A DNA stretch of 64,000 nt from a virus. The number at the start of each line of letters is the position of its first letter. Position 1 is the stretch's first letter. Position numbers and translations under genes: made by a program. The stretch spans positions 32,001-96,000 of the IMG/VR virus record IMGVR_UViG_3300046522_000297; one strand, written 5' to 3'. The notes under the pieces are model-generated. The model had not been told where the DNA came from. It was given only the letters and a program-made list of their open reading frames with translations, and searched no databases. Positions 3,382 through 32,628 of this stretch are shown here, piece by piece.

Positions 3382-4437
3382 ATGGAACCGAAACTGAATC
3401 AGACGGCTGCAGCCGTTGAAGACGCACTGATCCCGAACATTCTTAAACCCACAGAGAGTCTCAAGGTGGTATATCCTGAGGCAATCGACTTTACCGAAAA
3501 GCAGCTAAAAGTGTTCTGGCTGCCCGGCGAAGTCAAGGTGGAAAAAGACATCCAGGATATCCGTGTTAATATGACTCCAGCCGAGAGACACGGCACCCTG
3601 ACTACCCTGAAGTTGTTTACTCTGTACGAGCTAAAAGCTGGCGCAGAATACTGGGGCGGTCGATTTAAACAGAGGTTCCCGACGCATGAACTTCAGCGTA
3701 TGGCCGCTACGTTCGCAATGTTCGAACTAGCAGTGCACAAGCCGTTTTATGCAAAGATCAATGAACTTCTGTTTTTAGATAACGATGATTTCTACGCAGC
3801 TTACAAACAGGATCCGGTCCTGAAAGCTCGTATGGACTTTATCGATCAGATCATCGATCATCAAGACGATCTGGTTTCGCTGGGTGGATTTTCCCTTATC
3901 GAGGGCGGTATCCTGTATAGTGCATTCGGATTCCTCAAGCACTTCCAATCGAGGGGTAAGAACAAAGCCCTAAACGTTGTACGTGGCATTAACTTCTCGG
4001 TACGTGATGAAAACCTGCACTCCATTGCCGGGGCTTGGACTTTCAGAAAACTACTGGCTGAGAAGAAGGAGTTGATGAGTGCTGAAGACTTTGCTGTGTA
4101 TTCGGCAGAGATCAAACAACTGGTCCTCCGAGCTGCAGAGCAGATTCTTCTGCATGAAAGCTACATTGTTGATGAGATCTTCTCCCAAGGGGAGATTGAA
4201 GGCATCACGTCTTTGCAACTGAAGAACTTTGTTAAGTCTCGTATTAACCTGGTTCTTGTCGAGCTCGGTTATGAAAAGCTGTATGAAGTTACTTATAACC
4301 CGATTGCTGAATGGTTTTACGATTCGATTAATTCGTTTACGTTTAATGATACTTTCAGCGGTGTTGGAAATAGCTATCACAGAGACTGGGATGAAACCAG
4401 CTTTGCCTGGACCCCCAAGAATAAGAAACAACAATAA
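3382..4437 (+). CDS. nrdB: Ribonucleotide reductase class Ia beta subunit
   Basis: FWLPGEV, EGGILYSAF, RDENLH diiron motifs. Confidence 0.95.
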   Translation: MEPKLNQTAAAVEDALIPNILKPTESLKVVYPEAIDFTEKQLKVFWLPGEVKVEKDIQDIRVNMTPAERHGTLTTLKLFTLYELKAGAEYWGGRFKQRFPTHELQRMAATFAMFELAVHKPFYAKINELLFLDNDDFYAAYKQDPVLKARMDFIDQIIDHQDDLVSLGGFSLIEGGILYSAFGFLKHFQSRGKNKALNVVRGINFSVRDENLHSIAGAWTFRKLLAEKKELMSAEDFAVYSAEIKQLVLRAAEQILLHESYIVDEIFSQGEIEGITSLQLKNFVKSRINLVLVELGYEKLYEVTYNPIAEWFYDSINSFTFNDTFSGVGNSYHRDWDETSFAWTPKNKKQQ

Positions 4438-7289: not shown

Positions 7290-7555
7290 CCCCTGAAGAA
7301 GCAGAGCTAGCTAGAGGTGCTCACGAAACCCTGGCCAGAATACTTAAGAGTAACAAAGAAGCTGCCTGGCAGCGTCACTGTGACATCGCTCATGCCAACA
7401 TGGAGGGAGGACTCCTAAAATGGAAAGAAGCTAACGAGGCAGCTTGTAGAGTCATGATGAGCCTGTTCGGGGTAGATACTTCACCTCAATTTATAGAAGT
7501 CCTTAAACAAAGAGCACCTATTCCAAAGGCAATAGTTGAAACTCCGAAACAGTAA
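7286..7555 (+). CDS. hypothetical protein
   Basis: Likely start MTPEE, ATGA overlap. Confidence 0.55.
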   Translation: MTPEEAELARGAHETLARILKSNKEAAWQRHCDIAHANMEGGLLKWKEANEAACRVMMSLFGVDTSPQFIEVLKQRAPIPKAIVETPKQ

Positions 7556-7591
7556 TGATACAATTGCCTGATAATAATAAAGGATCTTAAT

Positions 7592-7948
7592 ATGTTTGAT
7601 TTTCTTAGCGGTATGTTAGGTGTGGTTTTCGGAAGAGTGAAATCGCCCCTGCCTACGCTGAAGCCCGAGCCTCCTAAATTCCAGGAAGTGTATCCTAATG
7701 GCGACGGAGAGTTTTCCGCAGTAGAAGTGAAAACCCCGTCTGTTTACACGGCTCCTAAGAAAGAGCCCACGGAAATAGAAAAAATGATTCAGCAATTTAA
7801 TCCCCGTCGTGATATGATTGTCATGAGCTACGCAAGACGTGATAAGCTTACTCCAGGCGAAAAGGATTGGCTGGATTCATTGGGTAACCGTGTACATTAC
7901 TTTACAGGCAACACATTGGTGAATTCGGCCATTGTAAGTTGCATGTAA
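7592..7948 (+). CDS. hypothetical protein
   Basis: 118 aa with AAGGA RBS. Confidence 0.65.
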   Translation: MFDFLSGMLGVVFGRVKSPLPTLKPEPPKFQEVYPNGDGEFSAVEVKTPSVYTAPKKEPTEIEKMIQQFNPRRDMIVMSYARRDKLTPGEKDWLDSLGNRVHYFTGNTLVNSAIVSCM

Positions 7949-7967
7949 AATATTGTTACAAAATCTC

Positions 7968-8190
7968 TTCACAAATATAAAAGTAGTGCTATAATAAATG
8001 TATATGAACACTTTCAACACTAACCCCCATTTCTCAGCAATTAAAGCTTCCTTCAAGGCGGCCAATATTGTTGCGCCCGTGGTTTTTGTAAATTCGTATA
8101 ATAGTGAGGGGATCGGCGGAGCTTAATGTAACTCTACATTAGTTAGCTTTAACCGAACCCACTCTCCCACAAGGTTAGTGGGTTTTTTGT
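7968..8190 (+). promoter_or_regulatory. Sigma70-type promoter, 40-codon leader ORF (8004-8126) and terminator/antiterminator ahead of the tRNA cluster
   Basis: TTCACA-16-TATAAT with TG extension; terminator AACCCACT/AGTGGGTT-TTTT; GAGGGGATCGG can pair with CCGAACCCACTC. Confidence 0.55.
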
Positions 8191-8201
8191 TTTATAACTA
8201 T

Positions 8202-8276
8202 CGGAGTGTAGTCCAGTGGTAGGTCGCCTGCTTTGGGAGCAGGAACTCGAAGGTTCGATTCCTTCCACTCCGACCA
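8202..8276 (+). tRNA. tRNA-Pro(UGG)
   Basis: Cloverleaf, TT-TGG-GA loop, CCA. Confidence 0.9.
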
Positions 8277-8291
8277 AATTTAAGGGCAGCT

Positions 8292-8522
8292 ATGTTTTAT
8301 AGCGTAGTTGGTTTCGCAGTAATGATGTTAGCCATGTTGTACGTTACCATAGTATATGCCGTAGTGGCATTAAATACGCTAGGTGAATACAACATTGGCG
8401 GCGTACCTAATACCCTCCGTGCAAAAATCGGAGTTCTGGTAATAGGACTCGTAATAGGTGCGCTTTGGTGGAAGCTGATTCATAATCTTCCGTTTACAAT
8501 CCATATGTCTGTTAGCACATGA
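8292..8522 (+). CDS. small membrane protein
   Basis: Two hydrophobic segments. Confidence 0.6.
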   Translation: MFYSVVGFAVMMLAMLYVTIVYAVVALNTLGEYNIGGVPNTLRAKIGVLVIGLVIGALWWKLIHNLPFTIHMSVST

Positions 8523-8693
8523 TTACTAAAATCGAGTTAGATAAAGATAACCGAATGCTTCGCATAGGCTTCGGTAAGAATGAAGGTAAATGGTTTATCC
8601 GTGTTGATCTTTGGACACACGGATATCGACTTACCGAGAAGTAAAATAACTCCGGCATTTAAATAGATGCCGGATATTAATAGAATACTAAGC

Positions 8694-8780
8694 TGTCCAG
8701 TGACCGGAACTGGCATCGGCCCCGGCTGTTAACCGGGTATGGAGTGAAATCCTTTGCAGGTTCGAAGCCTGCCTGGACAG
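8694..8780 (+). tRNA. tRNA-Asn(GUU), long variable arm, no encoded CCA
   Basis: CCCGG-CTGTTAA-CCGGG anticodon arm, GCAGG-TTCGAAG-CCTGC T arm. Confidence 0.75.
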
Positions 8781-8789
8781 CTTAGTGTT

Positions 8790-9356
8790 CTAACGTTTAA
8801 GTTTTAAATACTGTTTCCTGACAGCGTTGTCTGAAACCCCAAATTTAGTACCGAGAGTTGTCATAGGGATTTTCTGCACTTCAATAAGATCAATCAGGTC
8901 AACCGAATTCCAGTCCACCCTTCTACGCATAATAGCCGCACATTTGTTAGAGCAATACGAAAGGGTGCTAGATTTTTCTGAACCACATACCGGGCAACTA
9001 TCACGGATAGGGATAATGGAAACAGACCTACCGTTAGAGTTGAAATTAAAAAAGGACCTATCTAATCTGGAATAAGTTTCAGGAAGATCTGAAATGCCTG
9101 CGTGTACTTCTCGGTGGCAATTTGCACATAGGAGTATGCATTTATCAAGTTCATTCAGAATGGAGTCTAATTTAATTGGGTTAGCTACTATTTTACCGAA
9201 CGAGAATTCCTTCTGAGAAGGATCTATATGATGGAACTCTAAAGCCGAGTTACATTTATCGTAAAAACAGATTTGACATCTGTTACCCATAGCTTCGACT
9301 ATACGGGTTTTAGTTGATTGTCTCCAGTTTTTTACACGTTGTGACGAAGTTAGCAT
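8790..9356 (-). CDS. Free-standing HNH endonuclease
   Basis: CQIC...LEFHHIDP...LLCANCHREVH plus a zinc ribbon and C-terminal HTH. Confidence 0.85.
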   Translation of the reverse strand: MLTSSQRVKNWRQSTKTRIVEAMGNRCQICFYDKCNSALEFHHIDPSQKEFSFGKIVANPIKLDSILNELDKCILLCANCHREVHAGISDLPETYSRLDRSFFNFNSNGRSVSIIPIRDSCPVCGSEKSSTLSYCSNKCAAIMRRRVDWNSVDLIDLIEVQKIPMTTLGTKFGVSDNAVRKQYLKLKR

Positions 9357-22032: not shown

Positions 22033-22682
22033 ACCTCATCAATTTGGTATAAGAGAAGTGCAGAGAAATCCTCTGCATTTCTTTATGCAAAGGACGACTC
22101 AAATGAAAAAAGCAATCGTAGCACTTCTGATCAGTATGTTGATGATCGCACCGGTCAACGCCATGGTGTGGCTCCATCCCAGCGGCGTTTGGGTTAGTGA
22201 CACTTGTGTGACCCCGACTGGTCAATGGTTCACCTTTATTAACACCTTTGGGCCTGTCGGTGCAAACTGCTGGTTCAATATCAATGGTGTAACTTTTTAT
22301 GGCAAATTTTCATAAGGACTGATATAATGGGATTATTCCTCTGGTGCTTAGCGATCATCTTCGCAGTATGGGTTCTATGGATGATTATTAAACCTCGTCG
22401 TCCCAGTCATTCCTCAGACGGGGCTGAAGTTATCGCAGCCATTATTAGTGTCGTCGCTGACATAGTCGATTAACAGGAGTTATAATGAGTATCTCTGTCG
22501 TTGTAGTATTGGTAGCAATCGTAGTTTTGGCGTGGGTCATTTACAAAAATGCATATCGTTCCAAGTTACCGTTCGCAACGCCTAAGGTGACTCTTGAAAC
22601 TCCACGCAATAACGACGCTGTAAATTATTACGTTCCCCCGGATATGGCCTATTGGCATAAACCCGGGAAGTAATGCATCAAG

Positions 22683-26371: not shown

Positions 26372-26400
26372 TTGCAGTATAGTGACTACGTTGCTATAAT
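26372..26400 (+). promoter_or_regulatory. Sigma70 promoter for the tRNA pair
   Basis: TTGCAG-17-TATAAT with TG extension. Confidence 0.7.
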
Positions 26401-26413
26401 GTAAGTCTTCTGT

Positions 26414-26501
26414 GCGCCGGAAGCCCTATTGGTCGGAGGCCCTCGACTCATAATCGAGCTGCGAAAGCACGTTGCGGGTTCAAAGCCCGCCCGGCGCACC
26501 A
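26414..26501 (+). tRNA. tRNA(CAU) Met/Ile2 with long variable arm
   Basis: CTCGA-CTCATAA-TCGAG, A73, CCA. Confidence 0.85.
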
Positions 26502-26519
26502 ATAAATAGTTGTTAAGAT

Positions 26520-26607
26520 GGACCGGAAGCCCTACTGGTCGGAGGCCCTCGACTAATAATCGAGCTTCGAAATCACATTGCGGGTTCAAAGACCGCCCGG
26601 TCCACCA
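26520..26607 (+). tRNA. tRNA(AAU), Ile-reading paralog of the CAU tRNA
   Basis: CTCGA-CTAATAA-TCGAG, GGACCGG/CCGGTCC, CCA. Confidence 0.8.
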
Positions 26608-30898: not shown

Positions 30899-31124
30899 AA
30901 ATTCAATCAACGAAATTATCATGTACATTACCTGGACTCTCCTATTTATTGTATCTGCAATCCTCGGAGGGCTCTTCGGTGATTGTGGTATGACTGCAAC
31001 AGCGGGTGGATTGTTTTCCATCGCTCTAGTTGCAGCAATTGCATTATTCGTAACGTGGATAGATGACGTAGAAACTAAAACCGTTGACGACTCGGTACGT
31101 AAGCGTTAAAATAGTATCTCAAAT

Positions 31125-32367: not shown

Positions 32368-32548
32368 TCCAGCGGTAACGGTCTTGCACACTGAGGCTGT
32401 TATGCTATAATAGTCTCAATAAGGCAACCAAGTGGATTGGCAACCTACTGGCTTGCACCATCCGTGCACAGACGGTGGTTGCCCCAATAGCCTGTGCAAA
32501 TAGTAGAACGGAAAAGACCTTGTTCACAAGACTGGGTCTTTTCTCCAT

Positions 32549-32628
32549 GGTAGCGTGCCTGAGTCTGGTCCAAAGGAACGGATTGCAAACCCGTAAAACC
32601 GCAGGTTCAAATCCTGCCGCTATCTCCA
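32549..32628 (+). tRNA. tRNA-Cys(GCA)
   Basis: TT-GCA-AA loop, U73, CCA. Confidence 0.88.

Follow-up and report, generated by a model that had tools for sequence, protein, structure and literature searches.

In the trp, his, leu, thr, ilvGMEDA and pheA attenuators of enterobacteria, a short open reading frame (ORF) lies close to the promoter and the regulated gene is preceded by an intrinsic terminator. The 5' arm of this terminator can also be locked up in an alternative helix, and a ribosome that has reached the end of the leader tips the balance toward the terminator. Here we describe an element of the same layout in front of a phage tRNA-Pro gene, located on IMG/VR virus record IMGVR_UViG_3300046522_000297. 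The analyzed stretch of 64,000 nucleotides, hereafter termed the window, comprises bases 32001–96000 of this 114-kb record, which is estimated to be 71% complete and stems from a rhizosphere metagenome. We tentatively favor reading the element as an attenuator close to its promoter, where the intrinsic terminator before tRNA-Pro would gain or lose strength depending on the translation of a short ORF, an interpretation that is plausible yet falls somewhat short of being probable. About 60 nt separate the stop codon from the U-tract, a spacing on the scale of trpL. Unlike its enterobacterial counterparts, the element lacks both a Shine-Dalgarno (SD) sequence and a run of cognate codons, retains a weak hairpin in the antiterminated state, has a leader that is longer than usual with its 40 codons, and precedes a phage tRNA gene instead of a biosynthetic operon. 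It is further distinguished by the absence of a convincing 1:2 anti-antiterminator (best candidate at 8076–8111, −7.3 kcal/mol); therefore, the untranslated RNA is predicted to read through and not to super-attenuate. A four-segment, trp-like model pairing 8076–8085 with 8100–8111 (−7.3 kcal/mol) was not adopted, being not dominant in cotranscriptional minimum-energy folds.

Other described systems share single traits with this locus. In the tRNA cluster of phage T4, structured non-tRNA RNAs, species 1 and 2 (rnaC/rnaD), lie beside the tRNA genes; these RNAs arise by processing of the tRNA precursor and lack a promoter-ORF-terminator layout. The mgtCBR and mgtA leaders of Salmonella sense proline and Mg2+ via specific codons. 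These belong to chromosomal operons, whereas no equivalent codon signal was found here; the likeness lies in the proposal, put forward in PMC3641672, that translation of a short ORF chooses between stem-loops and in this way controls downstream transcription. For the ilvB attenuator of Corynebacterium diphtheriae, the leader peptide has been reported to be encoded on a leaderless transcript whose start is the start codon (PMC5784534), which shows that attenuation can work with a leader ORF devoid of an SD. The ilvB host is, however, an actinobacterium, where leaderless mRNAs are common, and the ilvB peptide has 15 aa and is rich in Ile and Val (PMC5784534), whereas the phage described here uses SDs for its other genes. 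Finally, the terminated transcript of an attenuator can function as a small RNA in its own right, as with rnTrpL of Sinorhizobium meliloti (PMC6614838). A comparable dual role would reconcile the attenuator with a small-RNA reading of the ~185-nt unit. Unlike for rnTrpL, no trans function or target is predicted for this unit, and the two show no sequence relationship.

The first-pass annotation of this region, made from the letters of the sequence, had proposed a leader-peptide attenuator composed of a TTCACA-16-TATAAT promoter with its start almost on an ATG at 8004, a 40-codon ORF running from this ATG to a TAA ending at 8126, and an intrinsic terminator (8156–8163/8177–8184) just before tRNA-Pro. 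Promoter and ORF are present as described, the terminator was confirmed, and the features of the locus are as follows.

7968–7995, plus strand: sigma-70-type promoter with TTCACA at 7968–7973, a 16-nt spacer and a TG-extended TATAAT at 7990–7995

8004–8126, plus strand: short ORF, candidate leader peptide, of 40 codons (42 from the in-frame ATG at 7998), with the TAA stop at 8124–8126

8106–8164, plus strand: extended imperfect hairpin, candidate antiterminator, −23.5 kcal/mol alone

8155–8192, plus strand: full intrinsic terminator with a 9-bp stem, a 13-nt loop and a U6GU4 tract, −15.3 kcal/mol

8166–8182, plus strand: residual short hairpin CCCAC/GUGGG with 5 bp and a 7-nt loop, −6.4 kcal/mol

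8202–8276, plus strand: tRNA-Pro (UGG), called by ARAGORN and matched by the Rfam tRNA model with 63.8 bits

The promoter agrees with 11 of 12 consensus positions in addition to its extended −10 element, is the top match within 6–14 kb and belongs to a window-wide set of TTTCAA/TTCACA-N16-TGnTATAAT sites. Transcription is predicted to start at A8002, 7 nt past the −10 element (which ends at 7995), with A8004 as the alternative; therefore, the ORF AUG (8004) would lie 0–2 nt from the transcript 5' end. A second promoter-like site (7953–7981, TTGTTA-17-TATAAA) is found 14 nt upstream of the main promoter and would put a ~10-nt AU-rich leader before the first ATG (7998). Two further promoter-like matches, at 22299–22328 and 22457–22486, proved to be SD-ATG contexts and not additional copies of this arrangement.

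In the core stem of the terminator, AACCCACT (8156–8163) pairs with AGTGGGTT (8177–8184), followed by T6GT4. The terminator 5' arm is at the same time the 3' strand of the 8106–8164 helix, whose 5' strand consists of the last six ORF codons and the stop. Complementarity between the ORF end and this arm, another element of the initial proposal, was borne out: segments 8106–8116 and 8153–8164 form 10 Watson-Crick pairs, with one A/A mismatch and one bulged A, and their pairing prolongs an inner hairpin (8121–8147) that holds the TAA stop. Both conformers were folded, a check that the first-pass annotation had suggested. The minimum-energy fold of 8095–8192 (−31.8 kcal/mol) includes the extended helix, and forcing the full terminator costs 4.5 kcal/mol. 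The competing structure exceeds chance: 0.3–0.5% of dinucleotide shuffles of the upstream sequence matched the 4.5 kcal/mol advantage, and ~25 other clean hairpin-plus-U-tract terminators in the window yielded 0–0.5 kcal/mol vs 4.2–4.8 kcal/mol for this terminator. A search of 7500–9000 with the covariance models of Rfam 15 at E-values up to 1 returned tRNA models only, with no leader, riboswitch or T-box among the matches.

A protein search with the ribonucleotide reductase reached at most 59% identity to any deposited phage, pointing at the absence of a close relative. Blastn of 7900–8300 against 50,697 phage records matched the tRNA-Pro part alone; thus, these records hold no annotated relative of the finding. 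Scans of IMG/VR identified a single distinct relative, sampled twice, as a 94-kb fragment (G001) and as a complete genome of 184,920 bp (G002), with a nucleotide identity to the window of 67–88% at gene level. A third lineage, P0002 (encoded on a 181-kb JGI contig), was compared at the protein level only. A metagenome scan with a protein pattern gave no match, and the sole metagenome match to a DNA pattern (L009) was dismissed as a chance hit in an AT-rich coding region without a tRNA.

In the relative, the whole module lies directly before tRNA-Pro (locus L002, positions 3905–4138). The architecture that the first-pass annotation expected to recur in related phages is hence present in one relative, but its pairing shows no compensatory change. 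Compared with the window, L002 is 96% identical in the promoter (block 7953–8003), 85% in the ORF and 88% in the 3' hairpins, vs 72% in the upstream 118-aa gene, 76% in tRNA-Pro and 78% in ORF76, a gene behind tRNA-Pro; judged by these identities, the module is better conserved than its flanking genes and tRNA-Pro itself. Segment 8151–8188 is identical in L002 save one loop base, and the competing fold is the minimum-energy fold there too; its 2.5 kcal/mol advantage was not equalled by any shuffle. The module next to tRNA-Pro is intact despite an upstream insertion of 576 nt (L002:3358–3905, window 7904/7945). This insertion, located between the 118-aa gene and the promoter and also found in one soil contig, carries TGTTACA at both junctions and contains an ORF (L002:3437–3883, 148 aa, likely start 3588) that was judged Ig-like by eye. 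A soil-metagenome contig matches 7969–8118 with one difference, flanking gene pieces of the same run being 9–12% different, and another soil run shows 6 differences per 140 nt vs 8–13% in its flanks; the soil contigs are of low depth and may be mosaic, so these contrasts in identity need care. A further soil contig (X3), covering 8052–8202, carries 21 substitutions without gaps.

The gap between U-tract and tRNA-Pro measures 13 nt in the window and is absent in L002, leaving no room for a tRNA-Pro promoter, so that read-through would be needed for its expression. Candidate promoters between the main promoter and the tRNA were rejected: TATAAT at 8097–8102, considered as an internal sigma-70 promoter for tRNA-Pro, has neither a −35 element nor a TG, and TATAAC at 8193–8198 is too near the tRNA and is deleted in L002. 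A T3/T7-like promoter for a phage RNA polymerase at the conserved AACCGAACCCACTCTCCCAC was likewise discarded, as the motif occurs a single time in the window even allowing 3 mismatches.

Comparison of the ORF across lineages involves two further features.

8007–8055, plus strand: C-rich, G-poor 5' segment of 49 nt, composition C17 G2 (window) or C16 G2 (L002), largely unpaired over about its first 30 nt and holding the variable codons 6–14

8035–8073, plus strand: hairpin A inside the ORF, present in every predicted fold

The frame is open in the window, L002 and P0002. Its codons 6–14 form a block that is ~50% diverged; the L002 lineage has compensating +1/−1 indels there, P0002 has lost one codon, and none of the three lineages has acquired a stop. 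The C-terminal 28 residues are almost invariant. Between the window and L002, a hand count gave 5 synonymous and 10 non-synonymous codon changes (dN/dS ~0.9), a ratio that fits a frame needing to stay open while the peptide sequence would be of little importance, and that counts against an ordinary small-protein gene. No family in Pfam or PHROGs matches the peptide, and an exhaustive HMMER search of 1.84 billion representative proteins returned its own clade and two long, repetitive, probably spurious matches, with no distant homologue. Of the 42 codons, 25 specify amino acids that belong to the first eight tRNAs (p = 0.005), but this test was chosen post hoc and is not counted as evidence. 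Since an SD is lacking, the ORF would need leaderless or 2-nt-leader initiation. The first ~33 nt of the transcript are predicted to be unpaired in a two-sequence consensus fold, and segment 8007–8055 could serve SD-less initiation as an unstructured region, or alternatively Rho loading.

We simulated the effect of a translating ribosome by masking a 28-nt footprint codon by codon and calculating pair probabilities of the transcript up to the U-tract. In naked RNA, the antiterminator forms with a probability of 0.94 (window) or 0.71 (relative). When the ribosomal A site is placed at codon 32 or any later codon up to the stop, the probability of the full terminator rises to 1.0 in both phages, and masking of 8095–8140 likewise gives 1.0. 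The earlier claim that a ribosome at the stop masks the antiterminator and causes termination therefore holds in silico. Its counterpart, that stalling earlier allows read-through, fared unevenly: in the window, mid-ORF stalls robustly favor the antiterminator, at codons 12–21 and 26–30, the latter within VAPVVFV, whereas in the relative they do so at few positions only. The robust prediction of this model is that translation to the end of the ORF leads to strong termination, whereas without translation, or with a lagging ribosome, the terminator would be weak and polymerase would read through.

Under the attenuator reading, the strong host-type promoter would start the transcript at, or two nucleotides before, the ORF AUG, and translation would be leaderless or near-leaderless. 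If the RNA stays untranslated, the last six codons would pair with the terminator 5' arm (8106–8164), leaving a weak 5-bp hairpin before the U-tract, and RNA polymerase would mostly continue into tRNA-Pro and two small ORFs. A ribosome at the last ~10 codons or at the stop would cover 8106–8136 and free the 5' arm, such that the 9-bp terminator forms and transcription ends. Read-through would accordingly go up whenever the leader is untranslated or the ribosome lags, including in any general shortfall of translation. Translation of the ORF, coupling of ribosome and polymerase, and the physiological signal are the parts of this scheme that we infer.

The genes behind the terminator and the surrounding tRNA region comprise the following.

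8292–8522, plus strand: ORF76, a 76-aa membrane-type ORF with an SD right after tRNA-Pro, conserved in L002 (80% identity in a separate comparison)

8519–8644, plus strand: 41-aa ORF overlapping the end of ORF76 by ATGA, matching phrog_38838 (unknown function) with E 1.7e-12

8658–8686, 14408–14435, 26392–26400 and 31084–31112: promoter-like sites of tRNA-Asn, tRNA-Ser(GCU), tRNA-Met and tRNA-Gly, respectively

8790–9356, minus strand: HNH endonuclease gene between tRNA-Asn and tRNA-Ile, with PHROG matches down to E 8e-38

The match to phrog_38838 indicates that real phage genes exist among the tiny ORFs that separate the tRNAs. The promoter-like sites lie 1–12 nt upstream of their tRNAs, and many tRNAs of this phage appear, from these motifs, to have their own promoters and hardly any leader. 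The HNH gene, probably a homing-endonuclease insertion, is not found in the relative; a plus-strand ORF of 140 aa occupies that place there. From this arrangement, the element would gate at most tRNA-Pro, ORF76 and the 41-aa ORF, and not the tRNA cluster; in the relative, without the HNH gene, the unit may extend further. Elsewhere in the window, a tRNA with anticodon CUA of the amber suppressor type (labeled Pyl by ARAGORN) is located at 11313–11388 directly after tRNA-Val, and a tandem of tRNA-Met (CAU) and a tRNA called Ile (AAU) by ARAGORN lies at 26414–26607 behind a TGCTATAAT promoter, each 88 nt in length and thereby unusually long for these isoacceptors.

A number of observations weigh against an attenuator. 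One concerns its reach: the first-pass annotation had it control entry into the tRNA cluster, a claim that does not stand in view of the promoter-like sites of other tRNAs and the minus-strand HNH gene after tRNA-Asn. Others concern translation, as the sequence before ORF 8004–8126 contains no SD whereas neighboring small ORFs of the tRNA region carry clear ones, and as the likeliest start, A8002, leaves a 2-nt leader. Tandem regulatory codons are absent from the ORF (Pro 2 of 42, Asn 5 of 42, Val 4 within codons 25–31), and its Asn and Val codons vary between relatives. The intact frame of P0002 is partly a selection effect, because this lineage was found via the ORF itself, and comparison at the DNA level is limited to two lineages, the window and L002. 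Between these, the helix 8106–8116/8153–8164 shows no compensatory change, U8113A costs one pair in L002 and CGG8117–8119UCU two G.U pairs, and mid-ORF stalls in L002 mostly still favor the terminator. The energy differences lie within the error of the nearest-neighbor model. Moreover, the two structures had been taken as mutually exclusive, which applies to the 8–9-bp stem but not to the 5-bp hairpin (8166–8182): a second CCCAC (8166–8170) pairs with GUGGG before the U-tract alongside the antiterminator in minimum-energy folds. Given this residual hairpin and the U-tract, the switch would modulate termination and not abolish it. For a leader-peptide attenuator, the anatomy, the competing folds and, in silico, the effect of ribosome masking hold, whereas an SD and a run of regulatory codons are missing and the pairing, though retained in L002, shows no compensatory change.

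In the main rival, which we consider possible but doubtful, the ~185–200-nt transcript would act as a structured leader or small RNA without translation of the ORF. It would fold into hairpins A and B, the extended hairpin 8106–8164 and a short hairpin at the 3' side; the promoter would do no more than drive tRNA-Pro and the small ORFs, the terminator would be weak and constitutive, and RNase P would remove the leader, maybe leaving a stable RNA. The minimum-energy fold of the naked RNA is exactly this structure in both phages (z −3.2), and nucleotide conservation is above that of the flanking genes without being concentrated at non-synonymous sites, at a dN/dS of ~0.9. Pairing is kept by one-sided changes in L002, namely G.U to A-U at 8037/8071 and U.G to U-A at 8048/8060 in hairpin A, and also in hairpin B (8086–8101). 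An ORF without an SD and a peptide without homologues outside its clade point in the same direction, as does a second structured leader of this phage.

32384–32548: tRNA-Cys leader with promoter TTGCAC-16-TG-TATAAT at 32384–32411, followed by tRNA-Cys at 32549–32628

This leader of 131 nt has a minimum free energy of −46.2 kcal/mol (z −3.7) and ends in a hairpin and UUUUCU 5 nt before tRNA-Cys; beyond the tRNA follow an SD, a 46-aa membrane-type ORF and tRNA-Arg. No ORF in it begins with ATG, the sole frame being one of 23 codons from a GTG, and across this region the 185-kb relative matches at 96% identity, well over the usual value for genes. Because the tRNA-Cys leader is conserved without an ATG ORF, structured leaders of this phage can do without translation, a further point against the attenuator. 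An untranslated RNA nevertheless sits poorly with an AUG at the transcription start, with 40 codons that stay open in three lineages through a diverged, indel-bearing block, and with a stop codon inside the competing helix; the perfectly conserved 9-bp terminator and U6GU4 tract would be purposeless, and no Rfam family matches.

We regard as improbable that the same terminator/antiterminator pair is switched by an input other than the ribosome, be it a phage or host RNA-binding protein, a processive antitermination factor active late in infection, an RNA such as tRNA, or Rho. In favor of such a switch, the alternative folds do exist, stand out from chance and are conserved; lying close in energy, they could be tipped by a modest input, and the 5' segment of 49 nt (C17 G2) resembles a Rho loading site and is kept in L002. 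Temporal antitermination is, moreover, a standard phage strategy, exemplified by lambda N and Q. Neither a candidate factor nor a binding motif was found, however, Rfam yielded no T-box or riboswitch, the motif of the terminator region is unrepeated across the window, and conservation of the ORF would be left unexplained. Least likely, and very improbable in our view, is an ordinary small phage gene of 40–42 aa that has a promoter to itself and ends in a leaky terminator, the extended hairpin serving only to stabilize the mRNA 3' end and overlapping the terminator incidentally, for although small ORFs are interspersed with the tRNAs and many are real (the phrog_38838 match, the conserved ORF76), and although the frame is kept in three lineages with 28 nearly invariant C-terminal residues, such a gene is disfavored by the overall dN/dS of ~0.9, by the conservation of synonymous sites among the closer soil relatives (1 difference per 150 nt vs 9–12% in flanks), by the missing SD next to small genes that have one, by the lack of any homologue among the 1.84 billion representative proteins, and by the absence of a competitor at the other clean terminators of the window.

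Of the attenuator reading, a more specific version would have a leaderless phage attenuator sense host translation, with tRNA depletion, anticodon nuclease or translation shut-off switching on tRNA-Pro and the genes behind it; we rate this version as rather unlikely. To our knowledge, phage tRNA genes are usually seen as constitutive accessories, and next to nothing is known about control of their expression. A full-text literature search found no described leader-peptide attenuation of tRNA genes, phage tRNA genes included. If the ORF is untranslated, this phage clade would still carry conserved, structured, promoter-driven leaders before tRNA-Pro and tRNA-Cys, a finding of some use by itself. 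If the attenuator is real, a known mechanism would operate at phage tRNA genes and with leaderless initiation, a setting new to it, and a switch before a phage tRNA would provide a concrete, testable mechanism that ties tRNA expression to the translation state of the host, bearing on the idea that phage tRNAs offset host tRNA loss in infection or defense. Should it sense host translation, it would be the first known attenuator of tRNA genes and would give the phage a built-in feedback on its tRNA supply.

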